Shown here piece after piece: positions 29,683-44,974 of a DNA stretch of 64,000 nucleotides. The translations under genes and the position numbers were made by a program. Positions within the stretch are counted from its first letter, which is position 1, and each line of letters opens with the position of its first letter. The DNA comes from Nitrospirota bacterium (GTDB lineage Bacteria > Nitrospirota > UBA9217): assembly GCA_020052615.1 (NCBI GenBank), contig JAGVOT010000101.1:57592-121591 (forward strand), read 5' to 3'. A model generated the notes under the pieces. The model saw only the letters and a list, made by a program, of their open reading frames with translations, did not search any database and was not told where the DNA came from.

Positions 29683-29711
29683 TTGACAGAATACCCTGCT
29701 TTGGCTACACT
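29683..29711 (+). promoter_or_regulatory. Sigma70-like promoter for the sphingolipid cluster: -35 TTGACA (29683-29688), -10 TACACT (29706-29711).
   Basis: 17-nt spacer, ~30 nt upstream of the SDR gene start. Confidence 0.45.
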
Positions 29712-29741
29712 TACACGACCTTACAGCGCATTATCACTAAT

Positions 29742-30743
29742 ATGAAACAAACTGTTATCGGCTCGGTTCTGGTCACTGGCGGCACCGGTTTTGTGGGCAG
29801 CCATCTCGTTGAGCTCCTGGTCAACAGAGGCTACGAGGTGTCCTGTCTTGTGCGGGACCCGGGAAATGTCCGATGGCTCAAAGGCCAACGGGTGCGTCTC
29901 ATTCAGGGCAATTGCAGTGACCGGGAATCCCTGGAGGCCGCTGTCCGGAATGCAGGGACCGTTTATCATGTCGCAGGTCTGACCAAGGCGGCCCGACGGC
30001 GAGACTTCTATGAGGTCAATCATATCGGTACCAGGAACATTCTGGACGCTTGTGCCCGCCGGGGCCCGAACCTGCAGAAATTCGTTCTGGTCTCCAGTCT
30101 TGCAGCCGCCGGTCCGGCGCAGGCTGACCGGCCGGTGAGGGCCATGGACGCACCTCATCCGGTGTCCGATTACGGAAGGAGCAAGCTCCTTGCGGAGGAA
30201 GAAACGCTCAAGTTCAAGGACCGCTTCCCGGTGGTCATCCTCCGGCCGTCTGCTGTGTATGGCCCGCGGGATACGGACGTCTTCGAGCTGTTCCGTTGGG
30301 CGGCAAAGGGCTACATCCTTGACATGAGCGGCAGTGAGCGCTTCCTGAACTGGTGCTATGTAAAGGATCTTGCCGAAGCGCTGGTGACGGCCGGCGAACG
30401 ATCCGTGCCGAGCGGCAGCGTCTATTTCGTTGCCGAGGACCGGATACATTCCATGACCGGATTCCAGAGGGTCCTCCAGGAGTCAGGCGGAGTCGCCGCG
30501 AAGATCATCAAGGTCCCTGTATGGGCGGGTTACCTCGTCGGCCTTGCAGCGGAAGCAGCCGGTATCCTGCGCGGAAGGCCGTCCATCATAAATCGTCAGA
30601 AGGTGCGCGAGGCTGCACAGCAATACTGGACCTGCGACCTGGACACGATACGGGCAGACCTTGGGTTCCAAGCAGCAATGCCCCTGGAGAAGGGGCTGAC
30701 GGCGACCTGGAAGTGGTACCGCGAGAACGGCTGGATCGACTGA
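29742..30743 (+). CDS. NAD(P)-dependent epimerase/dehydratase-family SDR; candidate ceramide (3-ketosphinganine) reductase CerR.
   Basis: Rossmann motif [16 protein letters not shown]; YxxxK equivalent SDYGRSK. It lies immediately upstream of spt and the GNAT gene, the arrangement reported for bacterial CerR. Confidence 0.7.
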
Positions 30744-30787
30744 TACTGCCTGATAAACGACGGATCAGAGTCAAGGGAGGAAGAGCA

Positions 30788-31969
30788 TTGGATCTTTTCG
30801 AGAAATGTGGGAAGTTCACGGCTGCAAAAGAGGTGATGGCGGCCGGATTCTATCCTTACTTCCGCGTGGTGGAATCGGAGCAGAATCCCGAGGTGACCGT
30901 GGAGGGAAGGAGGATGGTCATGCTCGGTTCGAACAACTACCTGGGCCTCACCAGCCATCCGAAGGTCAAGGAGGCGGCGATCGCGGCGGTGAAGAAATAC
31001 GGAAGCGGATGCGCCGGCTCCCGGTTCCTGAACGGCACGCTCGATATCCATGTACAGCTCGAGGAGAAGCTGGCGAAATTCTTCCGCAAGGAGAACGCCC
31101 TGACCTTTTCCACGGGCTACCAGACAAATCTCGGCATTATCTCATCCATCGCAGGAAAGGACGATGTCGTTGTCATTGACAAGCTCGATCACGCGAGCAT
31201 CATCGATGCCTGCCGGTTATCCTTCGCCGAGGTCAAAAAATTCAAACATAACGATATGGGCAGCCTGGAATTCGTCCTCAAGGCGTGCGGGGACCGGGGC
31301 AAGCTCGTGGTCGTGGACGGCGTGTACAGCATGGAAGGGGACATTGCGCAGCTTCCGGAGATCGTCAAGGTCTGCAGGAAGTACGGCGCCCGGATCATGG
31401 TCGACGATGCCCACGGCGTAGGCGTGCTGGGGAGGACGGGCCGCGGCACGGCCGAGCATTTCGGGCTCGAGAAGGACGTGGACATCATCATGGGGACCTA
31501 CAGCAAGTCCATGGCGTCCATCGGCGGGTTCGTGGTCGCCAGCGAGGATGTGATCCATTATATCAAGCATACGTCCCGGCCGCTCATCTTCTCGGCCAGT
31601 CCGCCGCCGGCCTCGGTCGCGTCGGTCATCGCGGCCCTTGATATCATCGATGAGGAGCCGGAACGGCGGGAGCGTCTCTGGCATAATACGCACAAGATGA
31701 TGAAGGCCTGCAAACAGATGGGCTACGACACCGGAACGACCGAGACGCCCATCATTCCGCTGCTCATGGGTGACATGGAACGCGCCTTCATGATGTGGAA
31801 GATCCTGAGCGACGAAGGGGTCTTCGTGAATCCCGTGGTACCGCCGGCGACCCAGCCGGGACGCTGCCTCATCCGTACGAGCTACATGGCGACCCACACC
31901 GACGAAATGCTCGACCGGGTGCTGGTGATCCTGGAGCAGGCGGGGAAGAAACTGGGCGTAATCCACTGA
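30788..31969 (+). CDS. spt: Serine palmitoyltransferase (alpha-oxoamine synthase family). Probable TTG start with a strong RBS.
   Basis: [80 protein letters not shown] (PLP-Lys). C-terminal [20 protein letters not shown] closely tracks Sphingomonas SPT (VVLEGVYSMLGDIAPL, VGTFSKSVGTVGGFV, PPATPAGTFLLRCSICAEHT). GGGAGG sits 8 nt upstream of the TTG at 30788. The upstream ORF extension (30353..) runs into the SDR gene. Confidence 0.8.
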
Positions 31970-31977
31970 TCAAACCT

Positions 31978-33090
31978 ATGCGGATCGAGACGGTTTCCGA
32001 CAAAAAAGGCCTGGCGCAGTTCATCCGTTTCCCCTGGACGGTGTATGAGGGGAATGCGAACTGGGTGCCGCCGCTCATCAGCGACATGGAGTTCATCCTG
32101 GGCGAGAAGAATCCCTTCTTCCATCACGCCGAGGCAGCCTGCTTTCTCGCGAAAGAAGGGGAGAGCGTTGTCGGCCGCATCGCCGCCATCATCGACCGCA
32201 ACCACATCAACACCCACAGTGAACAGGCGGGATTCTTCGGCTTTTTCGAATGTCTTCCCGATCCCGCCATCGCCGGCGCCCTCCTGGATTCGGCGTCGGC
32301 CTGGCTGAAGGAACGGGACATCGAGGTCATGCGCGGCCCCATGAACCCTTCGACGAACGATGAATGCGGCTTTCTGCTCGAAGGGTTCGATTCACCGCCG
32401 ATGATCTTGATGACCTATACGCCGCCGTACTATCTCGATTATATGGAACGGTGCGGCATGGCCAAATCCAGGGACCTCTATGCATACCTGTCGATCATCA
32501 AGGACGTATCGGCTGGCGAACGGCTTGAACGGCTTGCAGCCGGGGTGCGGGCGAGGGTCCCCGGGCTGACCGTGCGTCCGGCGAATATGAAGGACTTTGC
32601 TCATGAATTGGCGATCGTAAAAGAGATCTATAATTCCGCATGGAGCCACAACTGGGGGTTCGTTCCCATGACCGACGAGGAGATCTCGTCAATGGCGAAA
32701 CGGCTCAAACCGCTTATCGTGCCGGAACTGCTCCTGATGGCGGAGGTGAACGGAGATCCCGCTGCATTCTATATGGCGGTGCCGGACTACAACCAGGTCC
32801 TCCGCCGGGTCAACGGCAGGCTCGGACCCATCGGGATCATGAAATTCCTGTGGTATGCACGGAAGATCAGCGACATTCGCGTCCTGACCATGGGCGTGAA
32901 GGAGGAATACCGGAAGAAGGGGATCGAAGGCCTTCTCTATCTCGAGTCCTTCAAGGCTGCCAGCAAAAAAGGCTATGCGCGGGCGGAGATGTCCTGGATC
33001 CTTGAGGACAATGTCCTGATGCAGCGCGGCTGCGAGCTCATGGGCGGAAAACTGTACAAGAAATACCGGATCTATGAAAAGAAGATCTAG
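31978..33090 (+). CDS. GNAT-fold acyltransferase; candidate bacterial ceramide synthase (bCerS-like).
   Basis: ~370 aa, no TM. Acyl-CoA N-acyltransferase-like C-terminal half: VLTMGVKEEYRKKGIEGLLYLESFKAASKKGYARAEMSWILEDN. Starts 9 nt after the spt stop. Confidence 0.5.
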   Translation: MRIETVSDKKGLAQFIRFPWTVYEGNANWVPPLISDMEFILGEKNPFFHHAEAACFLAKEGESVVGRIAAIIDRNHINTHSEQAGFFGFFECLPDPAIAGALLDSASAWLKERDIEVMRGPMNPSTNDECGFLLEGFDSPPMILMTYTPPYYLDYMERCGMAKSRDLYAYLSIIKDVSAGERLERLAAGVRARVPGLTVRPANMKDFAHELAIVKEIYNSAWSHNWGFVPMTDEEISSMAKRLKPLIVPELLLMAEVNGDPAAFYMAVPDYNQVLRRVNGRLGPIGIMKFLWYARKISDIRVLTMGVKEEYRKKGIEGLLYLESFKAASKKGYARAEMSWILEDNVLMQRGCELMGGKLYKKYRIYEKKI

Positions 33091-33093
33091 ATC

Positions 33094-33687
33094 ATGAAGC
33101 ATATCGGACGCAAGCTCTATCATCTGCTTGGCGGTCTCGCATTGCTGTCGCTCTATTACCTGCTGGGACGGCAGCGGGCGCTGATCTGCTACGGACTCCT
33201 TGTCCTGGTCGTTCTTGCCATCGACATCGCCCGCCTTCGCGTGCCCGCCCTCAACCAGTTCATCCAGACCCGATTCAGCAGTTTCATCCGCAAGAACGAG
33301 GCGAACAAGCTCACCGGGACCGCGCCCTATGTGCTGGGCATCGGGCTGTCGCTCCTGCTCTACCGGACCGATATTGCGACTGCGGCGGTCTGTTTCCTTG
33401 CATTCGGAGATGTCGCGGCGACAGCGGTAGGGGAGCGGTATGGAAGAACGAAGATAACGGGAGAGAAGAGCCTTGAGGGGACCCTGGCATTCGTTGCGGC
33501 TGCGGTGACCGTCGGCTTCCTGCTTCCTCTGACCGGAATCCCCATTACGCACGGCATTGTTCTGGCCGGAGCCGTTGCCGCCGCCGGCGTCGAGCTTGTC
33601 CCGCTGCCCGTGAACGATAATCTGGTCATCCCCCTGGTCTCAGGTGGGGTGATGGAGATGATCAGCCGGGCGACCGGCTGCGCGTGA
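33094..33687 (+). CDS. Small polytopic membrane protein of the CdsA / dolichol-kinase-like (CTP-dependent transferase/kinase) fold.
   Basis: Six predicted TM. C-terminal KSLEGTLAFVAAAVTVGFL resembles the CdsA-family catalytic C-terminus. Starts 4 nt after the GNAT gene. Confidence 0.35.
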   Translation: MKHIGRKLYHLLGGLALLSLYYLLGRQRALICYGLLVLVVLAIDIARLRVPALNQFIQTRFSSFIRKNEANKLTGTAPYVLGIGLSLLLYRTDIATAAVCFLAFGDVAATAVGERYGRTKITGEKSLEGTLAFVAAAVTVGFLLPLTGIPITHGIVLAGAVAAAGVELVPLPVNDNLVIPLVSGGVMEMISRATGCA

Positions 33688-34545
33688 CAGAAGTTTCGAA
33701 AGCCGAGGGGCAAGGTATATCGTCAGCACGGTGAGCACGATGCCGGCTATGACGTCAACGACGTAGTGGTAGCGAAGATAGACCGTTGAAATGATGAGCC
33801 CCGTGACCGCCGGGATGAGCAGGGCGACAAGGACCCGTTCCCGGAACTTCCCGGAATAATAGAGCGTCATCAGGGCGACGGCGGTATGTCCGCTGGGAAA
33901 GGCGTCGGTCTTGGTATTTTCCAGCGCGTTCAGCGTGTCCTGCAGGGCAACGACGAAGGGGCTTGCCGCGAGGTCCCGGGTCTGCAGGTGCGCGAGGGTG
34001 AAGCGGGGCCCCACGGCGGGGAACAGCAGGTAGCCGAGATAGGACAGGTAGAAGCAAAGAATGATGCCGAAGACCGCTTCGTCGAAAGCGGTCTCGTTCT
34101 TTTTCCTGAATAGCACGACGCCCAGGACGATGGCCATTGGATAATAGCTGATGTAGGCGAACTGCATTGCCGTGGTCAGCAGGGGATGGATGAACCGTTC
34201 GAACAGGACCGTGGGGTGACGGCCGCCGAAGAGCCAGAGATCGGCGCGGATGAGCAGGTCATCGAGGTACCGGGGCCAGATCCCGGGAATGATGTCGCCC
34301 ATGCTGTCGAACAGGACCGGGACGATCAGGATCGGCAGGAACGCATGGAACCGCCGGGACCACGCCGGGGACGGTGACCGCGGGGAATAGTGTGCGAAGA
34401 TGAACAGCGAAACAGCGATCGCGGCGAGGCGGGCAAGGAGCCATGGGGCGTGGGGCAGCCGGGGCCACGCGGCGAGCGTCACGGCGGCCAGGAGCGATAG
34501 GAACAACAGAGACAGCAGGTCGACAGGCTTGCAGGTCCCGCGCAT
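33640..34545 (-). CDS. PAP2-family lipid phosphatase/phosphotransferase (membrane).
   Basis: PAP2 motifs KTDAFPSGHTA and LRYHYVVDVIAG (SRxxxxxHxxxD-like). Multiple TM. Its 3' end overlaps the CdsA-like gene by ~48 bp, convergently. Confidence 0.65.
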   Translation of the reverse strand: MRGTCKPVDLLSLLFLSLLAAVTLAAWPRLPHAPWLLARLAAIAVSLFIFAHYSPRSPSPAWSRRFHAFLPILIVPVLFDSMGDIIPGIWPRYLDDLLIRADLWLFGGRHPTVLFERFIHPLLTTAMQFAYISYYPMAIVLGVVLFRKKNETAFDEAVFGIILCFYLSYLGYLLFPAVGPRFTLAHLQTRDLAASPFVVALQDTLNALENTKTDAFPSGHTAVALMTLYYSGKFRERVLVALLIPAVTGLIISTVYLRYHYVVDVIAGIVLTVLTIYLAPRLSKLLSRAAGRPADHLHHPT

Positions 34546-34603
34546 GACCTCTTATACAATACCTCTCTCCTAATTGCAAGGGCATCTGTGTTATACTCGA
34601 GCT

Positions 34604-35929
34604 ATGCATAAGAAGGCTTATTCACTCCTGATCGCACTATCGATCCTGTGTGCGACGGTCATTGCATGCGGTCACTGCCTCGCCGCAGAACGGATGTCTC
34701 TCGAGGAATGCATCAATACGGCGCTCAAAAGCCAGCCGACCATCAGGGCGGCACGGGAGAACGTCCGCGCAGGCCGGGGCCGGGAGACCCAGGCGGCATC
34801 GCCCTATTTCCCTCAGCTCACGGCAAGCACCGGCTATTCCGAGAGCCACTCCCCCATGGGCGGCGCGTTCTTCGGAGGCAGCATAACGAAAACCTATACA
34901 ACATCGCTGTCGGTCAACCAGACGCTCTATGACTTCGGAAAGACCGGCAACGCCTACGACGCGGCGAAATGGGGAACGCTGTCGTCGGAGCAAGATGCGG
35001 AACAGGTCAGCCAGGAGGTCGTGCTGAACGTCAAGCAATCCTATTACGGGCTGCTCGCCGCAACGAAGCTTGTCGAGGTCGCCCGGAAAACGGTCGAGCA
35101 GACCGAAAGCCACCTGCGCCAGGCAGAGGCGTTCTTTCGAGCGGGCTCCAAACCACGGTATGACGTTACGAGGGCCGAGGTGGAAGTGAACAATGCGAAA
35201 CTCGGTCTTATCAACGCAAGGAACAGTGTGCGCTTGCGGACCATTGCCCTGAACAATGCCATGGGCATCGATCCGGGAAGATCAACGGAGATCGTCGAAG
35301 CGCTTCCTGAGGTCCCGGCACTGCCGGCGCTGGGGCAGGCCCAGATCGACGCCCTCAAGAACCGCCCGGACATGAGAAGGACGGAGACCGACATCGAGGC
35401 AGCACGTTCCCGTGTCCAGGCCGAACGGTCGAACTATCTGCCGACGCTATCGGCGAATGCCGCCTACAACTGGGCGACCGGGTCCTCAGAGTTTGGCCAG
35501 TTCATGGGGACGACGCTCAAGGGGGATGTCCAGAACAGCTGGAACGCCGGGATCATGCTGACGCTTCCCCTGTTCCAGGGCGGCTTGACGAAAGGCCGGG
35601 TGAGCGAGGCGCGTGCGAATCAGCTCGCGCTCGAGGCCCAGCGGGACATCATGAAACAGTCGATCCTCTTCGAAGTGAACCAGGCCTTTGCGGATCTCGA
35701 AAGCGCGGCTGCCAGGGTGGATGTCATGGAGAAGACACTGCAAAAGGCCCGGGAAAACCTTGAGATCGCCCAAGGCAGATATAAAGCAGGGGTCGGGGCC
35801 TATATTGAGATCACCGACGCCCAGCTTTCCTCGGTCAATTCAGAAACGGACCATATCAAAGCGCTTTATGATTTTCACCTGTCGATAGCCCAGCTCCTGA
35901 AGGCCATGGGCCGGCAAAACGGCGATTGA
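34604..35929 (+). CDS. Outer-membrane efflux protein (TolC family) of the ABC-type tripartite pump.
   Basis: Signal peptide MHKKAYSLLIALSILCATVIA. OEP repeats: VNQTLYDFGKTG, TLPLFQGGLTKGRVSEARA. Confidence 0.7.
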   Translation: MHKKAYSLLIALSILCATVIACGHCLAAERMSLEECINTALKSQPTIRAARENVRAGRGRETQAASPYFPQLTASTGYSESHSPMGGAFFGGSITKTYTTSLSVNQTLYDFGKTGNAYDAAKWGTLSSEQDAEQVSQEVVLNVKQSYYGLLAATKLVEVARKTVEQTESHLRQAEAFFRAGSKPRYDVTRAEVEVNNAKLGLINARNSVRLRTIALNNAMGIDPGRSTEIVEALPEVPALPALGQAQIDALKNRPDMRRTETDIEAARSRVQAERSNYLPTLSANAAYNWATGSSEFGQFMGTTLKGDVQNSWNAGIMLTLPLFQGGLTKGRVSEARANQLALEAQRDIMKQSILFEVNQAFADLESAAARVDVMEKTLQKARENLEIAQGRYKAGVGAYIEITDAQLSSVNSETDHIKALYDFHLSIAQLLKAMGRQNGD

Positions 35930-35990
35930 TCGCGCATGCACGTCCGGGACGCATCCTTCGTTCACCATCCCGCACTTCGAGGAGTATTCC

Positions 35991-36449
35991 ATGCCGAAAG
36001 TTGAATCAGTGTTCACGGTGAAACTGCCCATCAGGGCAGTGTGGTCCTTTATGTCCGACCGGAACGAAGTGGGCTGTCTCTTTCCGGGATGCAAGGGCGT
36101 CAGGATCATCGACCATCTCGATGCGGTCTGGAAAGTACGCGTGACCTTCGGCCCCTTCGCCCGGACCGTGGAGCTGAAGACGCACACCACGGTGTTCAAG
36201 GAGTTCGAACAGCTCTCCTGGGTCGGAAGCGGAGGGGATATCCACATGTCGGGCGACGTCATCCTGAGAAGGATATCTGATGACGAGACCGAGGTTGTGT
36301 ATCACCTGGAAGGGCATGTGACCGGACCATTTGCCATGCTCCAGGACATCGTGGTGGCGGAGAAATTGCGTGAAGTAAAGAAGAAGTTCATCAGGAACAT
36401 CAGGGACGAACTGGAATGGCAGTTGGAAGAAGGCGGGGAGAAGAAATGA
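35991..36449 (+). CDS. SRPBCC-superfamily (CoxG / polyketide-cyclase-like) protein embedded in the efflux operon.
   Basis: MPKVESVFTVKLPIRAVWSFMSDRNEVGCLFPGCKG...~150 aa. Confidence 0.45.
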   Translation: MPKVESVFTVKLPIRAVWSFMSDRNEVGCLFPGCKGVRIIDHLDAVWKVRVTFGPFARTVELKTHTTVFKEFEQLSWVGSGGDIHMSGDVILRRISDDETEVVYHLEGHVTGPFAMLQDIVVAEKLREVKKKFIRNIRDELEWQLEEGGEKK

Positions 36450-37546
36450 CGCTGGCGCTGTTCAGGAACAAAAAGCTGTTGATAGCCCTTGCAGCCGCTG
36501 CGGCCGTTGTGCTCATTGTCCTGGTGTCAGGAAAAAAACCGGTCCCGGTCAGAGTGCTTGAACTCAAGCCTGGTGAACTGCGCGTCATCGTGAACGCCAC
36601 CACCACGTCGACGATCAAGTCGGAATACGAGGTCACCCTGTCAGCGCAGCGCACGGGGCGGGTCGTCAAACTGCCGGTGCGGGAGGGAGACCGGGTCCGG
36701 AAAGGCGACCTGATCGCGCGGCTCGATCTCTCCGAGGAGTCGGTCCAGTCGGAGAACATGCTTGCTCAGAGCAGGGCGACCTATGATGAGGCGGAAAAGA
36801 ACCTCAAACGTTCGGAGGACCTTTTCAACAAGGGAATGATCTCCCAGCAGGATTACGAGGGAACCAGGCGGGCCTACGAAGTGGCGAAGTCGCAGTTCGA
36901 GGCATCGCGCGAAGATGCCCGGGTGAAGAAGGATTACTCCGTCATCACGTCTCCGTTCAACGGCGTGATCTCCCGAAAATACACGGAGGTAGGCGAACTG
37001 CTCCTTCCGGGGAAACAGATCGTGACCATTGTGGATCCCGATCGGATCTACGTTCTCGCGACGATCGATGAGGTGGACGTCGGGAGGCTTCGTCTGGACC
37101 AGCCGGTGAACATTACGGTGGATGCATTCCCCGGTGAGCGGTTCTCCGGCGAGATCCGAAGGATATCACCCATCGTGAGCGGGGGAAAGCTGGAGACCCG
37201 GACCGCCGATGTATGGATCTATTTTTCTTCCAGGGACGCCAGGATCAAGCCGGGCATGTCCGCAGACATCGAGGTGCTCATCGCAACGGTGAAGGACGTC
37301 CTTGCATCACCTTCGCAGGCGATCGTAGAACGCGACGGGAAGAAGCAGATCTTTGTGGCTGAGGGAAAAGGTATTCGGCCGGGAGTCAAGACCCGCGTGC
37401 GGTTGCGGCCGGTGGAGATCGGAGAAAGCAACTGGATCAGTACGGAGATCAGGAAAGGCCTGGCGCCGGGAGAATTCGTCGTCACGACGCCCGAGTCGGA
37501 AGGATTGAAGGACGGCGTAACGATCAGGATCGAGGAAACCAAATAA
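36446..37546 (+). CDS. Periplasmic adaptor (membrane fusion protein, HlyD/MacA family).
   Basis: N-terminal TM; coiled-coil ESVQSENMLAQSRATYDEAEKNLKRSEDLFNKGMISQQDYEGTRRAYEVAKSQFEASRE; beta-barrel/lipoyl motifs. Its start overlaps the preceding stop. Confidence 0.75.
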   Translation: MTLALFRNKKLLIALAAAAAVVLIVLVSGKKPVPVRVLELKPGELRVIVNATTTSTIKSEYEVTLSAQRTGRVVKLPVREGDRVRKGDLIARLDLSEESVQSENMLAQSRATYDEAEKNLKRSEDLFNKGMISQQDYEGTRRAYEVAKSQFEASREDARVKKDYSVITSPFNGVISRKYTEVGELLLPGKQIVTIVDPDRIYVLATIDEVDVGRLRLDQPVNITVDAFPGERFSGEIRRISPIVSGGKLETRTADVWIYFSSRDARIKPGMSADIEVLIATVKDVLASPSQAIVERDGKKQIFVAEGKGIRPGVKTRVRLRPVEIGESNWISTEIRKGLAPGEFVVTTPESEGLKDGVTIRIEETK

Positions 37547-37578
37547 GCTCTCATCTCCCAACATCAGGTCGTTATGCC

Positions 37579-38256
37579 ATGATAGAACTTCGGGACATCA
37601 GCAAGAACTACCGCATGGGAGAACTGGATATCTGCGCGCTCTGCGGCGTGTCTCTTTCGGTGAAACAGGGAGAGCTGATCGCTGTCATGGGGCCGTCGGG
37701 TTCCGGAAAGTCGACGCTCATGAACGTCCTGGGCTGTCTCGACCGTCCGACGGGTGGTACCTACACATTTGAGGACCGCGAGATAAGCGCAATGTCCGAC
37801 GATGAACTTGCTCACGTGCGGAACGCCAAGATCGGTTTCGTCTTCCAGTCCTTCAATCTCCTTCCACGCTTTACGGCCCTGAAGAATGTGGAAATGCCGC
37901 TTGTCTACAGCGGTGTTCCCGGCCGGCTTCGCACCGAGCGGGCGATACCGGTCCTTGAAAAGGTCGGCCTGCAGGACCGCATGTTCCACAAACCCACGGA
38001 ACTTTCGGGCGGTCAGCAGCAGCGCGTGGCCATTGCACGGGCGCTGGTGAACAGGCCGCCGCTCCTGCTCGCCGACGAACCGACGGGCAATCTCGACAGC
38101 CGGTCCGGCGCGGAGATCCTGAACATCCTGTCGGACCTGAACCATCAGGGCGTCACGATCATGATCGTGACCCATGACCATGATGTTGCGGCACGTTGCA
38201 AGCGGATCATCAATCTCAAGGACGGACAGGTCGTCGGAGACCGGCTAAGAACGTGA
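37579..38256 (+). CDS. ABC transporter ATP-binding protein (MacB/LolD subfamily).
   Basis: Walker A GPSGSGKST, Q-loop, signature LSGGQQQRVAIARAL, Walker B LLLADEPTGNLD, H-loop. Confidence 0.9.
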   Translation: MIELRDISKNYRMGELDICALCGVSLSVKQGELIAVMGPSGSGKSTLMNVLGCLDRPTGGTYTFEDREISAMSDDELAHVRNAKIGFVFQSFNLLPRFTALKNVEMPLVYSGVPGRLRTERAIPVLEKVGLQDRMFHKPTELSGGQQQRVAIARALVNRPPLLLADEPTGNLDSRSGAEILNILSDLNHQGVTIMIVTHDHDVAARCKRIINLKDGQVVGDRLRT

Positions 38257-39461
38257 ACTTCCTCGAAACATTCAAGGTCGCACTCGAGGCGATCCTGTCG
38301 AACAAGATGCGCTCGGGCCTCACCATGCTCGGGGTGATCATCGGCGTTCTTGCCGTGATCCTGCTGGTATCAATCGGGGAGGGCGCGCGCGTCTATATCA
38401 CGAAGGAACTGACCGGCCTCGGTACGAACCTGCTCATCATTACACCGGGAAAGACCACGACCAGCGGCGGCTTCCACCCGCCTTCCGCGGGGACGGTCAG
38501 AAAGCTGACCTATGACGATGCCCAGGCGCTCCGTCGACGCGCCTGGCTGCTGACCGATGCGGTTCCCATCGTGCTCGGCACGGGAAGGATCAAGTTCAGG
38601 AACCTCGGCCGAGATACCATGGTCATCGGCACGACGCCGGAGTTCCAGCGTGTGCGGAATCTCTTCATCGGGATCGGAAACTACGTGTCCCAGAACGATG
38701 TCGATACCAAGGCAAAGGTGGTTGTGCTCGGAACCAAGGTCAAGGAGGAGCTGTTCGGTGATCAGAATGCACTCGGACAGGTTGTCATGCTTTCCGATGC
38801 CCGCTATCGCGTCGTCGGGGTGATGCAGAAGAAAGGAACGAGCCTGGGTTGGGACGTTGATGACGTTATTTTCATTCCGGTGACCAGCGGCCAAGACCTG
38901 TTCAGCACCGATTCCTTGTTCGAGATCCTTGCTTCGACGCCGCGCGCTGAAGACGTTGAACGGGCCATTGCCCAGATCAAGGACATCCTGATCAAGCGTC
39001 ACGCCCATAAGGAGGATTTCACCATCCAGACCCAGGGTGCCATGCTGTCCACCATGGACACGATCCTTGGCGTATTGACCGCCGTGCTGGGCGGGATCGC
39101 GGGGATATCGCTTCTGGTCGGAGGCATCGGCATCATGAACATCATGCTTGTCTCGGTGCGTGAACGGACCCGGGAGATCGGCATCCGGAAGGCCATCGGC
39201 GCCCGGAACAGCGACATCATGGCGCAGTTCCTGATCGAGGCCATCACGCTCTCCGGAGTCGGAGGGGTCATCGGCATCATCCTCGGCGTGGGGCTCGCTC
39301 TGTTGATCCCGCTCTTCGTTACCGTGCTCCCGACGAGCGTCTCGCTCTGGTCCATCGCCATGGCTTTCTCGTTCTCCATGGCCGTCGGGGTGTTCTTCGG
39401 CGTGTACCCGGCCCGCAAGGCATCGCTCCAGGACCCGATCACGGCGCTCCGGTATGAATGA
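38253..39461 (+). CDS. ABC transporter permease with an FtsX-like domain (MacB-type). Probable GTG start overlapping the ATPase stop.
   Basis: N-terminal TM, large periplasmic domain, C-terminal FtsX three-TM bundle: GIGIMNIMLVSVRERTREIGIRKAIGA. Confidence 0.75.
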   Translation: MNFLETFKVALEAILSNKMRSGLTMLGVIIGVLAVILLVSIGEGARVYITKELTGLGTNLLIITPGKTTTSGGFHPPSAGTVRKLTYDDAQALRRRAWLLTDAVPIVLGTGRIKFRNLGRDTMVIGTTPEFQRVRNLFIGIGNYVSQNDVDTKAKVVVLGTKVKEELFGDQNALGQVVMLSDARYRVVGVMQKKGTSLGWDVDDVIFIPVTSGQDLFSTDSLFEILASTPRAEDVERAIAQIKDILIKRHAHKEDFTIQTQGAMLSTMDTILGVLTAVLGGIAGISLLVGGIGIMNIMLVSVRERTREIGIRKAIGARNSDIMAQFLIEAITLSGVGGVIGIILGVGLALLIPLFVTVLPTSVSLWSIAMAFSFSMAVGVFFGVYPARKASLQDPITALRYE

Positions 39462-41118: not shown

Positions 41119-41676
41119 TCAGGGCAGAGCAGACAGCGAGGCTCTCAGCCGGGCACCGTCCTTGTAATCCTCGTTCAAACGGACGATGCCGGCCCGGTCG
41201 ATAACGACCGTGGTCCCCATCGTACCATGGAACAGGTCAAGAACTGCAAGGGTCGTATCTGCCAGGACCGTGAATCCGGAACCTGCATAGCCGTTCGAAA
41301 GCTCCGCGTTTCGCGCATTAACAACGCTTCCTGATACATAATCCACGAGAAAGAAGCGGACGTCGGGATAGTTGGGAAGTACGGTAGACCGCATGTTGCT
41401 CATATGCATATCGCAGACCGGGCACCACATGGTGAAATAAATCACCGTTCCTCTGACCCCGGGGGATGAAATAACGGACGAGAGGGTAACGATGTTTCCG
41501 AGGGTGTCGGTGAGCGTGAAGTCCGTTGCGATCTGGCATACATCCGGCCCGGTGATTCCGCATGTGACAGCGGGGCGCTTGTCGGCGCCCGACGGCGCGA
41601 TGTCGTCCATCATGCCGCCGCATCCGGCCATCAGGAACAGCAGGACCCACAGCGGTCGCGTCTTAACGGAAGCCAT
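41119..41676 (-). CDS. Thioredoxin-fold redoxin lipoprotein (TlpA/AhpC-like).
   Basis: MASVKTRPLWVLLFLMAGCGG (lipobox). Active-site context IYFTMWCPVC. Confidence 0.6.
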   Translation of the reverse strand: MASVKTRPLWVLLFLMAGCGGMMDDIAPSGADKRPAVTCGITGPDVCQIATDFTLTDTLGNIVTLSSVISSPGVRGTVIYFTMWCPVCDMHMSNMRSTVLPNYPDVRFFLVDYVSGSVVNARNAELSNGYAGSGFTVLADTTLAVLDLFHGTMGTTVVIDRAGIVRLNEDYKDGARLRASLSALP

Positions 41677-42646
41677 AGCTGACCCCCAGCGTATAGATAT
41701 CCGTGGTCGGAAAGTTTGAACCCCACCCATCGAGCAAGATCGCATGGCTCATGCTCACCCGGACGCTCCAGTCGTGATCGGTGCTCGAGTATGCCAGGGA
41801 ACCGCCTGCGGAGGTCTTCTTGAACCCGCTGGACGGGTCAGATACGCCTTCGATCGTCCCCTCGGCCTCGCTGATCTGCGATAGCGACGCGGTGCCGGTC
41901 AGTGCGTCTCCGCCGGTCCCGAGATAATAGATGTAGCCTATTGAGAGAACAGCGGAGCTCCGGTCGCCAAGCTTCCTGCGGTATGGTTCGACATAGTTGC
42001 CGTATTCCCTGTTGACCGACCGCTCGACATAGGCCCCGTATGACAGGGAGAGGGATGCGGTCCAGGGATGGATCGTTTTCGCTATCATGACGTTCCCGTC
42101 GACCCGGTAAAAGCCACGTCCGGTCACGTCGAAACTGCTGGTAACCTCATCGTACGGTGATATGCCCGTCGGGACGAGAAGCGACGGGCCAATAAGCACG
42201 GAGGGAGTCATATCCTTGAGGTTTCGTACCTTCCACGCGGATTCGTCGTCGAACGGCTCGTACCAGAGGTTCATGGTTATATCGCCCAATCCATCAGTTC
42301 GGGACGAAAAGTTGTTATAGGCATTATCGTTCCAGACGTACGGCACGACGATGCTTGCCTGCCAGCGAGGGGAAAATCGCTGTCCATATCCCAGGTTCAG
42401 ACGGTATTGTTGCAGGTCCGACCCGGGAGGGTCGGCCCGGTGGATCCCGCGCTGGTCCCAGTAGCCGTTGTATATTTCGATATCAGATGATACATCGACC
42501 ATGGCCGAATAGAATTTCGGCAAGACAAGGCCGGTACCGCCCGCTCCGCCGCAGCAGGATCCTGCATGAACGGAGAGGGGCGGGAATAGCGCGGCCCCCG
42601 CGAGAAGAACCGCCAGAATGCGAGACCGGTTTATCCGCTTGTTCAT
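41663..42646 (-). CDS. Putative outer-membrane beta-barrel protein.
   Basis: Signal peptide MNKRINRSRILAVLLAGAALFPPLSVHA. Alternating amphipathic beta-strands; aromatic C-terminus ...YTLGVSYGFR. Confidence 0.4.
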   Translation of the reverse strand: MNKRINRSRILAVLLAGAALFPPLSVHAGSCCGGAGGTGLVLPKFYSAMVDVSSDIEIYNGYWDQRGIHRADPPGSDLQQYRLNLGYGQRFSPRWQASIVVPYVWNDNAYNNFSSRTDGLGDITMNLWYEPFDDESAWKVRNLKDMTPSVLIGPSLLVPTGISPYDEVTSSFDVTGRGFYRVDGNVMIAKTIHPWTASLSLSYGAYVERSVNREYGNYVEPYRRKLGDRSSAVLSIGYIYYLGTGGDALTGTASLSQISEAEGTIEGVSDPSSGFKKTSAGGSLAYSSTDHDWSVRVSMSHAILLDGWGSNFPTTDIYTLGVSYGFR

Positions 42647-42668: not shown

Positions 42669-43580
42669 TCATGGCGCAGGGGTCACTATGAAGGTCGCAT
42701 AGGTATTCGTAAGCGACGCATTCGACACCAGGCCATCGGTTGTTTTCACCTTGCTATTGACCGTCATGCGCACATAGACCGTGTTCGTCACCGCGCTGGT
42801 CAGTGTTAACCCTGAAACGATCCAGTGTCCGTCGCCCGCGGGATTGGTGCCGGTCAGCCAGGATGATAATGGGTTGGTCGTGGCTTCCACAAGAGCGGAA
42901 CTCACGGTAAAGGGCGTGTTCTGCTCATTCGTAAGCGTTGCGCCGGTGAATATGGCAGGATAGGACGTCATCATGTTGCCCTGCGCCGCAAGGAACAGAT
43001 TGATCTGTGTGGCTGATGCCGCGCCGTCACTGAACAGGTAATATGACCGCATTGCTGTCCCTGTCGTTAGGGATATCAGGTCGTCGTTTTGTCCCTTCAG
43101 GGCAGCACGCACGGTGTCGGTTCCCATGCCCATGCCTACAGATGGGTAGAACGTGGCTGTCTCTGAACCGATATTGACCTGCAGTTCCCAGTAACCACCC
43201 ATCGTGCCGGTCCCGGAAGCCATGAGGTAATAGACCGTGCAATCGTAAGTCCCATCCGCATTATCCGTGACGGCGTCCACAGGTGAGCTGTGGCTCTTGG
43301 AACTCATGTGCATAAACGGATAGACGGATAGGGATAGACCTGGTGCTGCCGCAAAGGTGCTTCTGTTGCGCACCCGCAGCTTGAAGGTCGTTTTTCCCGT
43401 TGTTGCGTCAGCCATCATCCCGCCCATCGTGGTCCCCGGGATATATTCCACCAGATAGGTACTCGCTGGGCTTGATGCCTGCACATACACTGTCTCTGTC
43501 TTTGTCTCTGTTCCGCAACCGGCCAGAAGAACAATTCCGGCACTCAACATCAAATAGGTTTTGATCTTTTGAAGCACCAT
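42669..43580 (-). CDS. Lipoprotein with several Met motifs (MGGMM, MHMSS, MGMGT, NMMT).
   Basis: MVLQKIKTYLMLSAGIVLLAGCG (lipobox). Met-containing motifs are reminiscent of Cu(I)-binding MxxM sites; no other recognisable domain. Confidence 0.35.
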   Translation of the reverse strand: MVLQKIKTYLMLSAGIVLLAGCGTETKTETVYVQASSPASTYLVEYIPGTTMGGMMADATTGKTTFKLRVRNRSTFAAAPGLSLSVYPFMHMSSKSHSSPVDAVTDNADGTYDCTVYYLMASGTGTMGGYWELQVNIGSETATFYPSVGMGMGTDTVRAALKGQNDDLISLTTGTAMRSYYLFSDGAASATQINLFLAAQGNMMTSYPAIFTGATLTNEQNTPFTVSSALVEATTNPLSSWLTGTNPAGDGHWIVSGLTLTSAVTNTVYVRMTVNSKVKTTDGLVSNASLTNTYATFIVTPAP

Positions 43581-43602: not shown

Positions 43603-44097
43603 TTATTTTAGATCCAGCAGATCGGCAATATCGGTTTCGTAATTCAACAATGACCTCTTCTCAAATCCCCAATAACGCTTCTGAACGACCCCGGTCCTGT
43701 CGATAAGGAAACTCGCAGGCAGGCCGGAGACCCGATATGCATCTGCAACTTGACTGCTTCCATCGATGACGGCGGGAAAGGTAACCGCAAATTTCTTCAG
43801 GAACGACGATACCCCGCTTGCCGATGTTTCCACGCTGATCGCGATGACGACAAACCCCTTGTCGCGGTATTTCACATATAGCCGCTCGAGATCGGGCAGT
43901 TCATCCCTGCAGGGAACGCACCAGGGCGCCCAGAAGACCAGATACAGGACCTTTCCCCGGAACTGCTGCAACGTGAGCTGTGTCCCGTGCAGGTCCGTGA
44001 GCGAGAATGCCGGGGCCGGATAAGTATCGTGAACGGCAAAGCCATCGCACGGCAAAAGGAATGTGAAAAGAAATGCTGTAATAGCGCGTCGCATCAT
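43603..44097 (-). CDS. TlpA/ResA-like periplasmic thiol-disulfide oxidoreductase.
   Basis: MMRRAITAFLFTFLLP signal sequence. Active site VFWAPWCVPCRDELP; thioredoxin fold. Confidence 0.7.
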   Translation of the reverse strand: MMRRAITAFLFTFLLPCDGFAVHDTYPAPAFSLTDLHGTQLTLQQFRGKVLYLVFWAPWCVPCRDELPDLERLYVKYRDKGFVVIAISVETSASGVSSFLKKFAVTFPAVIDGSSQVADAYRVSGLPASFLIDRTGVVQKRYWGFEKRSLLNYETDIADLLDLK

Positions 44098-44161
44098 ATT
44101 GTCTGGAGATAAAGGCGGGCGGGGGGAAAGTCTTCCACCCGCCCGGGTTGGATTTAGTGAA

Positions 44162-44974
44162 CTATTTCCTCGCGGTCGGCGGAGCCGGCACTTTCGCAGG
44201 GTGGCATTCGGCGCAGTTCTGCTGAGCCGTGATGCCGAAGGTCTTGCCTGGCGTCCACGTGGATTTAGGCTTAAAGGTCGCGTCTTTCCACGCATTGAGA
44301 TCGACAACGAGTTTGTGGGCGACGCTCGCCGCGACGCGTGCACAACGGTCTTTTCGTTCAGCACTTCCCAGGACGAAGCCTGATTTATCCATCCATTTGC
44401 CGACGGATACATGGCAAAGCGGGGATTCGCTCTTGGTCTGAATGATCGCGGTCTTCTGCTTCGGTTCCTTTGGCGTGTATGTGGGAAGAGGCGTATTGGA
44501 ATACCAATCCATCATGTCCGATCCGATCGTATGGCCATGCTCGCAATCCGGTCCCCCGATCCGGGGGCCGATGATCAGATTGCTCACGATATTGGCGCCT
44601 GCGTTGGATCCGCACACGGTGCCCCACCCCGCCATGCCGCCCTCCAGGAAGACGAAAGAGTCCGCCGGAAAGGATTTATAAGGCTCTCCGACCTTCTCCC
44701 TCAGCTGGCTGAACACGGCATTGATGACCGCGGCGCCGCAGAATACGCGGTACCATTCGTTGTAGGCGATCTCCGCGGTCTTGTCGGGATCGAGCTTTAC
44801 GTACGGCCAGGGCCATTTTTCCATGCTGGCGCCCACTGCATTGGCATCCTTGATGAATCCCGGGATCGACGTTGCCAGCGCCGTGATGCCGGCAGCGCCG
44901 AGGGCTGCGGTCCCGGCTCCTTTCAGAAAGTGTCTGCGAGAGCACTCCAGTTCGAACTGTCGATCTGTTTTCAT
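44162..44974 (-). CDS. Tat-exported protein with a cupredoxin-like C-x-H-x-H-x5-MM loop and a C-terminal CAECH motif.
   Basis: Twin-arginine signal MKTDRQFELECSRRHFLKGAGTAALGAAG. PDCEHGHTIGSDMMDW and QQNCAECHP. Start set at CAT 44972-44974 with a GAGAGGAA RBS. Confidence 0.4.
   Translation of the reverse strand: MKTDRQFELECSRRHFLKGAGTAALGAAGITALATSIPGFIKDANAVGASMEKWPWPYVKLDPDKTAEIAYNEWYRVFCGAAVINAVFSQLREKVGEPYKSFPADSFVFLEGGMAGWGTVCGSNAGANIVSNLIIGPRIGGPDCEHGHTIGSDMMDWYSNTPLPTYTPKEPKQKTAIIQTKSESPLCHVSVGKWMDKSGFVLGSAERKDRCARVAASVAHKLVVDLNAWKDATFKPKSTWTPGKTFGITAQQNCAECHPAKVPAPPTARK

Follow-up and report, generated by a model that had tools for sequence, protein, structure and literature searches.

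The region at positions 29683–34545 of the stretch of Nitrospirota DNA analysed here (64,000 nucleotides (nt) of contig JAGVOT010000101.1, hereafter the window) raises two questions: whether its tightly packed genes encode the synthesis of ceramides, and what becomes of the ceramide afterwards. We consider it probable, judging from homology and gene linkage, that the locus is a sphingolipid biosynthesis system of Nitrospirota. It would comprise a ceramide core made up of a putative serine palmitoyltransferase (Spt), an N-acyltransferase of the GNAT fold and a short-chain dehydrogenase/reductase (SDR), an AUR1-like enzyme of the PAP2 superfamily that transfers a head group, and a kinase-like membrane protein of 197 amino acids (aa). 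The region contains five genuine open reading frames (ORFs), four of which are tightly packed on the + strand and one convergent:

29683–29711, + strand: candidate σ70-like promoter, TTGACA-17-TACACT (consensus scan, 10 of 12 positions matched)
29742–30743, + strand: SDR, 333 aa
30788–31969, + strand: Spt, 393 aa, TTG start
31978–33090, + strand: tandem-GNAT N-acyltransferase, 370 aa, ATG start, assigned to the bacterial ceramide synthase family (bCerS / CC_1154 / YghO)
33094–33687, + strand: small polytopic membrane protein, 197 aa
33640–34545, − strand: PAP2 protein, 301 aa, convergent

The intergenic gaps between the SDR, Spt, GNAT and 197-aa genes equal 44, 8 and 3 nt, respectively. A sequence-only reading of this stretch had described three co-directional packed genes behind one promoter. 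The packing is as described, and the number of genes is four: the 197-aa gene starts 3 nt past the GNAT stop and is therefore an operon member, probably co-transcribed with the bCerS gene and translationally coupled to it. The promoter, about 30 nt upstream of the SDR gene, is a pattern match only, which is no evidence of function, in a region where four promoter-like consensus sites were found against 1.9 expected. The TTG start of Spt at 30788 is preceded by the ribosome-binding site AGGGAGG, and the 393-aa sequence is identical to the protein recorded at NCBI. The 197-aa and PAP2 genes overlap tail to tail at their 3’-ends by exactly 48 nt, in accord with the earlier estimate of about 48 bp. 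The same overlap is kept in three relatives (L001, L004 and L093) with proteins 49–85% identical to those of the window, hence the ends of both genes are real.

The GNAT protein yields a weak C-terminal Acetyltransf_1 match in Pfam, and no NCBIfam model matched it. Its full-length homologues were retrieved by tblastn of plasmid records, two of which proved to carry sphingolipid clusters of the chromosomal type. The cluster of Escherichia coli PN43 contains lptF, lptG, an aminotransferase gene (spt in RefSeq), and genes that encode an acyl carrier protein (ACP), an epimerase, a fatty acyl-AMP ligase and YghO; that of Sphingomonas parapaucimobilis contains genes for an NAD(P)H-binding SDR, ACP and serine palmitoyltransferase (SPT), lptF, lptG, and genes for a desaturase and an N-acetyltransferase. 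The GNAT protein is 37% identical to YghO end to end (E 3e-89) and 33% identical, also end to end, to the Sphingomonas N-acetyltransferase encoded beside lptF/lptG (E 6e-70). Each core protein of the E. coli and Sphingomonas clusters matches solely its counterpart gene in the window. The genes yghO (ECD_02850) and Swit_3908 have been grouped with CC_1154 of Caulobacter as “aca”, and ECD_02852 with CC_1164 as “epi”, and SPT activity has been shown for E. coli B (PMC9386255). CC_1154 adjoins the LptF2/LptG2 genes in Caulobacter (PMC11324152). According to an AlphaFold model built from the alignment, the protein has a tandem GNAT fold and not a FemAB one, FemX being merely a distant fold match. 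At the level of sequence, the protein is firmly tied to the family of the Caulobacter ceramide synthase, which has been validated genetically, and the bCerS-like assignment made from sequence alone was upheld. In Bacteroides fragilis, knockouts of homologues found with Caulobacter CCNA_01212 and CCNA_01222 accumulate 3-ketodihydrosphingosine (3-KDS) and keto-dihydroceramide.

Two natural Spt-GNAT fusion proteins were also found (P0288 and P0305, 777 and 780 aa, 42% identical to each other), and the N-terminal halves of both score best with the CFB model of SPT. Other architectures in the bCerS/YghO family include two fusions of a PilZ domain to GNAT (P0359 and P0404), a hint at control by cyclic di-GMP, and a tandem double-GNAT protein of 784 aa (P0256). 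The E. coli PN43 record (L084, NZ_MG591698.1) holds a complete Caulobacter-type set next to glcC. Of 5,426 complete E. coli genomes, 4,068 (about 75%) carry the 4-kb block of spt, ACP, epimerase and ligase genes (spt-acpR-epi-aasR) beside yghO; according to the literature, B/BL21 is among the carriers.

Spt is a fold-type I pyridoxal phosphate (PLP) enzyme (Pfam Aminotran_1_2, E 2.5e-60). Its best match among all NCBIfam models is the Bacteroidetes-type SPT (NF047600). SerpalmtaseCFB scores 576 bits, followed by the β-proteobacterial SPT (435 bits), the BioF/Kbl subfamily (434 bits) and the α-proteobacterial SPT (379 bits). The best PDB match is the SPT of Sphingobacterium multivorum (3a2b; 436 bits, collinear over the full length); the scores of a BioF/KBL enzyme, the Sphingomonas SPTs, Kbl and cysteate-C-fatty acyltransferase are 334, 317–328, about 269 and 247 bits, respectively. 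The SPT models thus stand ahead in both collections (576 versus 434 bits and 436 versus 334 bits), and a BioF/Kbl identity was rejected. The motif GTYSKS...GGF is present, with K240 as the PLP lysine, and the alignment to Sphingomonas SPT reaches residue 392 of 393; both features had been read from the sequence earlier, together with the Spt call itself, and all three hold. Residues H135, D206, H209, K240 and R363 align with H159, D231, H234, K265 and R390 of the Sphingomonas enzyme SpSPT, and Spt is 40–42% identical to its counterparts in the E. coli and Sphingomonas clusters. By best match and context, and not by threshold, Spt is assigned to the Bacteroidetes/δ-proteobacterial subgroup of SPTs.

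This assignment accounts for a feature of the locus that had been pointed out as a departure from Caulobacter, namely that no ACP or acyl-ACP synthetase gene is adjacent. Two SPT subgroups are distinguished, and a dedicated ACP and acyl-ACP synthetase accompany only the α/β/γ-proteobacterial one (PMC9386255); the subgroup of the soluble S. multivorum/Bacteroidetes-type SPT (3a2b, NF047600), which gives the best match to Spt, is described without an ACP partner. A tblastn search with the ACP and ligase of E. coli and the ACP of Sphingomonas retrieved no ACP or fatty acyl-AMP ligase homologue in the whole 64-kb window. The absence is therefore confirmed and extended, and it is not an anomaly, because it is normal for the predicted subtype of Spt.

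The amino acid condensed by Spt bears on the nature of the product. The core enzymes might make an N-acylated amino lipid derived from something other than serine, such as 1-deoxyceramides (from alanine) or capnoids of the sulfonolipid type (from cysteate). Amino-acid specificity is not readable from sequence, Spt scores under the equivalog cut-off, and 1-deoxyceramides produced by the same enzyme set are reported to be abundant in anoxic waters. We nevertheless regard this explanation as quite unlikely, given the lead of the characterised SPT over cysteate-C-fatty acyltransferase, the conservation of the SPT catalytic residues, and the linkage to a putative AUR1-like transferase, which would need a C1 hydroxyl, present solely in a serine-derived base.

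The SDR is of the extended type, with the Rossmann motif GGTGFVG at residue 13 and the catalytic YxxxK within YGRSK at residue 144; its Pfam matches are Epimerase (4e-39) and 3Beta_HSD (1.5e-28). It is a candidate ceramide reductase, a role that rests mainly on the conserved linkage described below. The earlier CerR-like call rests on an identity of 26–30% and on gene neighbourhood, and generic SDR families score similarly.

The PAP2 protein is the part of the locus that speaks to the fate of the ceramide. It passes the Pfam PAP2_3 model (PF14378) with 78.1 bits against a cut-off of 27 (E 1e-21), covering profile positions 3–190 of 190. A profile of 11 cluster-linked PAP2 homologues has as its best PDB match the yeast inositol phosphorylceramide (IPC) synthase AUR1 (E 2.5e-7), and the alignment covers the membrane core (profile positions 75–287, AUR1 residues 86–311). 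The phosphatases LpxE and PgpB, next among the PDB matches, align over the last 70 residues only. The blocks FPSGHT and STVYLRYHYVVD mirror FPSLHS and STMYLTHHYFVD of AUR1, and residues H220, H260 and D264, invariant across the 11 homologues, align with PSLH and HHYFVD of AUR1. The AUR1-type block S/A-T-x-Y-L-R-Y-H-Y-x-x-D is found in nine of the 11 cluster-linked proteins. A regular-expression search for the phosphatase motifs KxxxxxxRP (C1) and SRxxxxxHxxxD (C3) found them in none of the 11. The PAP2_3 domain, the PSxH and S-T-x-Y-L-x-x-H-Y-x-x-D blocks and the lack of the C1 motif are common to the window protein, AUR1 and BT_1522 of Bacteroides thetaiotaomicron. We conclude that the PAP2 protein is likely a phosphosphingolipid synthase of the AUR1/IPC-synthase type. 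Its head group need not be inositol, since no inositol-phosphate synthase, phosphatidylinositol (PI) synthase or CDP-alcohol transferase occurs among the 28 flanking window genes scanned. Unlike BT_1522, whose gene lies in an inositol cluster, it is encoded in the ceramide operon itself.

The linkage of these genes was assessed over a wide range of bacteria. An exhaustive HMMER search of the GNAT family yielded 8,675 representative clusters. For the locus survey, one genome per species was retained, an alignment of 13 GNAT sequences served as the query, and 80 loci at 43–69% identity were collected from about 20 phyla, among them Nitrospirota, Zixibacteria, Desulfobacterota, Acidobacteriota, Gemmatimonadota, Ignavibacteria/Bacteroidota, Planctomycetota, Anaerolineae, Verrucomicrobiota, Eisenbacteria, Latescibacterota and Elusimicrobiota. 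An Spt homologue lies at most 2.5 kb from the GNAT gene in 56 of the 80 loci and an SDR homologue at most 4 kb from it in 51; both are present in 46. Clustering of spt, bcerS and cerR in many phyla has been published, hence the ceramide core of the window is a new member of a known system.

Of the 80 loci, 24 have a PAP2 homologue at most 3 kb from the GNAT gene, and at least four gene orders are represented among them. In eight loci of Acidobacteriota and Verrucomicrobiota the order is SDR-PAP2-GNAT-Spt, with the PAP2 gene embedded between those of the SDR and GNAT proteins; in five loci of Gemmatimonadota and Eisenbacteria it is Spt-GNAT-SDR-PAP2. Three loci of Desulfobacterota and Acidobacteriota have SDR-Spt-GNAT followed by a convergent PAP2 gene, and L004 shares this order with the 197-aa gene inserted between GNAT and PAP2. 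In the actinomycete Nonomuraea gerenzanensis (L087; NZ_LT559118.1, 5,687,700–5,692,500), genes for Spt (−), GNAT (+), SDR (+) and a convergent AUR1-like PAP2 protein fall within 5 kb. Linkage that survives rearrangement is strong evidence that the PAP2 protein acts in a shared pathway with the ceramide genes. The gene table of PLSDB has no annotation for this N. gerenzanensis region. In four loci of other Nitrospirota lineages (L019, L020, L062 and L078) the place of the 197-aa and PAP2 genes just past the GNAT gene is taken by a convergent gene for a β-ketoacyl-ACP-synthase-like protein of about 420 aa.

These gene orders also bear on the possibility that the last two genes are a housekeeping envelope pair that happens to lie beside a ceramide operon, for example a polyprenol kinase and a phosphatase of the BcrC/PgpB type engaged in the recycling of undecaprenyl phosphate. 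Annotations of the 197-aa protein as a dolichol or a diacylglycerol/polyprenol kinase in source records, weak NCBIfam matches of the PAP2 protein to undecaprenyl-diphosphate phosphatases (23 and 18 bits), and a distant homologue of the 197-aa protein among housekeeping genes would fit it. Nevertheless, we judge it very unlikely. The PAP2 gene sits between the SDR and GNAT genes in the eight loci mentioned above and stays with the ceramide genes through rearrangements in Acidobacteriota, Gemmatimonadota, Desulfobacterota, Eisenbacteria, Verrucomicrobiota and Actinomycetota; the architecture of its product is AUR1-like; and in two divergent clades the 197-aa gene starts 3 nt past the GNAT gene or overlaps it.

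The 197-aa protein contains several hydrophobic segments, and source records annotate it as a dolichol kinase or a diacylglycerol/polyprenol kinase. Thirteen of the 14 family members give weak matches to Pfam CTP_transf_1 (best E 0.0011), all below the gathering score. Aligned by hhalign with P0497, a protein named SEC59/DGK1/VTE5 family protein at NCBI, the family profile gives a probability of 99% and E 2.2e-18 over 171 columns, that is, full length. Pfam scans of distant relatives gave nothing, and tblastn against plasmids gave no useful match. The invariant blocks of the family are GD...G...G.K.LEG and DN..IP, and with the SEC59/DGK1/VTE5 kinases (of dolichol, diacylglycerol and phytol) it shares the blocks GD...G..xG..K...K(S/T)LEG and DN..(I/V)P. 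Compared with the eukaryotic enzymes, the 197-aa protein is much shorter, scores below curated thresholds and is tied by its operon to a ceramide synthase gene. It is most likely a member of the SEC59/DGK1/VTE5 kinase branch of the CdsA superfamily, and so a candidate lipid kinase dependent on cytidine triphosphate (CTP). The earlier call of a CdsA/dolichol-kinase fold is accordingly narrowed to the kinase branch, and CdsA proper is set aside. We know of no member of the SEC59/DGK1/VTE5 family that acts on sphingolipids.

Among the 80 loci, tblastn and hidden Markov model searches found the 197-aa gene only in L004 (Nitrospiraceae) and in L077. The L077 clade, whose protein is 37% identical to that of the window, has the gene overlapping the GNAT stop and followed by azlC/azlD, with no PAP2 gene within 7 kb in three different contexts, and one complete genome of this clade keeps only the pair of GNAT and 197-aa genes. 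Since two clades at this level of divergence both place the gene directly after GNAT, the second of them without PAP2, its conserved partner is the ceramide synthase gene and not PAP2. Outside the window’s own lineage the two genes do not go together, and 23 of the 24 loci with PAP2 beside the ceramide genes lack the 197-aa gene. The CdsA-like/PAP2 “pair” of the sequence-only reading is thus a lineage-specific juxtaposition, its two genes being largely unlinked in related genomes. The suggestion that this pair adds a phospho-head group survives for the PAP2 protein, with its predicted AUR1 type and its linkage to ceramide genes in many phyla, and falls for the pair as a unit.

The same distribution bears on a different relation between the two proteins. 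The 197-aa protein could be a CTP-dependent ceramide kinase producing ceramide-1-phosphate and the PAP2 protein a phosphatase removing it, so that the couple would set the ratio of the two lipids without any head-group transfer. The adjacency of the genes with an overlap conserved in the lineage would suit such an arrangement, as would the origin of the PAP2 superfamily among phosphatases, with LpxE and PgpB as the next PDB matches, and the published case of Caulobacter, where a dedicated kinase makes ceramide phosphate. Against it stand the absence of the C1 motif and the C3 arginine from all 11 PAP2 proteins, the AUR1-type block in nine of them, the 23 PAP2-linked loci devoid of a kinase-like gene, and the second kinase-like clade devoid of PAP2. 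On balance we consider such a couple unlikely.

Returning to head-group transfer by an AUR1-like enzyme, the following pathway may be proposed. Going by homology, linkage and published work on the family, Spt would condense L-serine with acyl-CoA to 3-ketosphinganine; the tandem-GNAT bCerS would N-acylate this intermediate, and the SDR would reduce the 3-keto group to give dihydroceramide. The order of condensation, N-acylation and reduction is the one proposed for Caulobacter. The AUR1-like PAP2_3 enzyme, to judge by its family, motifs and recurrent linkage, would then transfer a phospho-alcohol from a glycerophospholipid (phosphatidylethanolamine, phosphatidylglycerol or PI are possible donors) to the C1 hydroxyl of ceramide. 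This reaction, like those of AUR1, sphingomyelin synthases and BT_1522, would release diacylglycerol and give a phosphosphingolipid. The least certain step is that of the 197-aa candidate kinase, which may act on a pathway lipid (ceramide or the long-chain base) or recycle the diacylglycerol by-product. Any specific substrate for this protein can be named only tentatively, at well under even chances, and this is the weakest step of the scheme. Diacylglycerol recycling as its sole role is weakened by the second clade, in which the gene comes after GNAT and no PAP2 gene lies within 7 kb. A bolder version of the proposal makes the 197-aa protein a new CTP-dependent kinase or cytidylyltransferase acting on ceramide, its keto precursor or its long-chain-base precursor, delivered straight from bCerS. 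This enzyme and the AUR1-like one would form a Nitrospirota-specific route to a new phosphosphingolipid, and the cluster-embedded PAP2_3 clade would be a general bacterial phosphosphingolipid synthase in Acidobacteriota, Gemmatimonadota, Desulfobacterota, Actinomycetota and other groups. In this full form we find the proposal unlikely.

Several observations weigh against the assignment of the locus to sphingolipid synthesis with head-group transfer. Spt lies below every SPT equivalog cut-off in NCBIfam (576 versus 640 bits for the CFB model, 435 versus 500 for the β- and 379 versus 670 for the α-proteobacterial one); these models are lineage-specific and none is for Nitrospirota. The SDR is only 26% identical over the full length to the SDR in the CerR position of E. 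coli (E 2e-31) and 30% to that of Sphingomonas (E 5e-27); its first NCBIfam match is HpnA (140 bits, cut-off 368), with OleD comparable, both far below the cut-offs. Caulobacter CerR is reported to be periplasmic, whereas the SDR of the window starts directly at the Rossmann motif. Comparisons for bCerS and CerR were run via the E. coli and Sphingomonas counterparts of CCNA_01212 and CCNA_01222; the scans returned no Caulobacter locus. The GNAT family extends past sphingolipid clusters: of the 51 loci flanked by 4 kb or more, 12 have no Spt gene nearby (e.g. L011, L014, L018, L022, L029 and L035), and Roseomonas copies (plasmid records H4–H16) adjoin an NTP-transferase gene, some being annotated as dATP pyrophosphohydrolase. 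Some members of the family may thus be N-acyltransferases with other substrates. The best NCBIfam match of the PAP2 protein, the Bacteroides PI-dihydroceramide synthase (NF052609), reaches 35.3 bits against a cut-off of 480, hence the protein is not an orthologue of that enzyme; its similarity to AUR1 and BT_1522 is very low, and AUR1 is found by profile only. The 197-aa protein itself matches CTP_transf_1 at E 0.15, below the gathering score, with no match in NCBIfam, nor in the PDB by single sequence or profile. Finally, a distant homologue of this protein (about 34% identity; L094, 5001–5621) is encoded in the housekeeping row def-fmt-rsmB-PASTA-rpe, where sphingolipid genes are lacking; the wider 197-aa family is therefore not limited to sphingolipid loci.

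Compared with known systems, the core of the window contains the same three enzyme families, encoded by clustered genes, as the Caulobacter pathway (CC_1162 Spt, CC_1154 bCerS, CC_1164 CerR) and its counterparts in E. coli B and Sphingomonas. The five-gene system of the Caulobacter type includes AcpR and AasR, which, like LptF/G paralogues, are absent from the 64-kb window. The window Spt belongs by assignment to the other SPT subgroup, and its three core genes form one compact operon. Head groups in Caulobacter are made by CpgA, CpgB and CpgC, with no AUR1-like enzyme reported there, and no ceramide kinase of the CpgB type was recognised among the annotated genes of the window. In Bacteroidota, according to published work, spt, cerS and cerR are not clustered, in contrast to the operon of the window, whose host belongs to Nitrospirota.

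The window is ordinary chromosome, with genes for DnaE, RelA/SpoT, RecJ and FeoB. Also present are the gene for a haem-copper oxidase subunit of the COX1 family and, with it, FixG-like and P-type ATPase genes. The nearest database relatives carry the name Nitrospirota. Past the start of the PAP2 gene, positions 34574–39461 (+ strand) encode an OEP efflux protein, a small protein of the CoxG/SRPBCC type, an HlyD/MacA-like adaptor, a MacB-type ABC ATPase and a MacB/FtsX permease. By tblastn, CoxG and MacA homologues among the 80 loci occur only in the lineage relatives L001–L004; all four exporter-region genes tested recur in L093, whose core proteins are 49–76% identical, and homologues of the MacB-type ATPase are also found in six loci from other phyla. 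One possibility is that these genes encode an exporter of lipids or lipoproteins associated with the sphingolipid genes; another is simple synteny within the lineage. Pfam gives no match at E 1e-5 for two adjacent ORFs on the − strand (41663–42646 and 42669–43580; 327 and 303 aa), which lie beside a redoxin/AhpC-family gene (43603–44412).

Given the published work, a ceramide core in one more phylum was to be expected and holds no surprise for a specialist. In the literature searched, we found no description of an AUR1-like/PAP2 gene in bacterial spt clusters outside Bacteroides, including its recurrence within spt-bcerS-cerR clusters of many phyla, or of a bCerS-coupled SEC59/DGK1/VTE5-like gene in Nitrospirota, and no report of sphingolipids in Nitrospirota. 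Bacterial sphingolipids are predicted in dozens of phyla, and head-group enzymes for them are known in two cases only, namely Caulobacter (CpgABC) and the Bacteroides inositol lipid. The PAP2_3 gene of AUR1 type, kept through several rearrangements in or beside spt-bcerS-cerR in at least ten phylum-level groups, is a candidate for a general bacterial phosphosphingolipid synthase, and the Nitrospirota pair of GNAT and kinase-like genes provides a second lead. The locus predicts that sphingolipids may be made by Nitrospirota, which are environmentally abundant and mostly uncultured, and this bears on how environmental lipid biomarkers are read.

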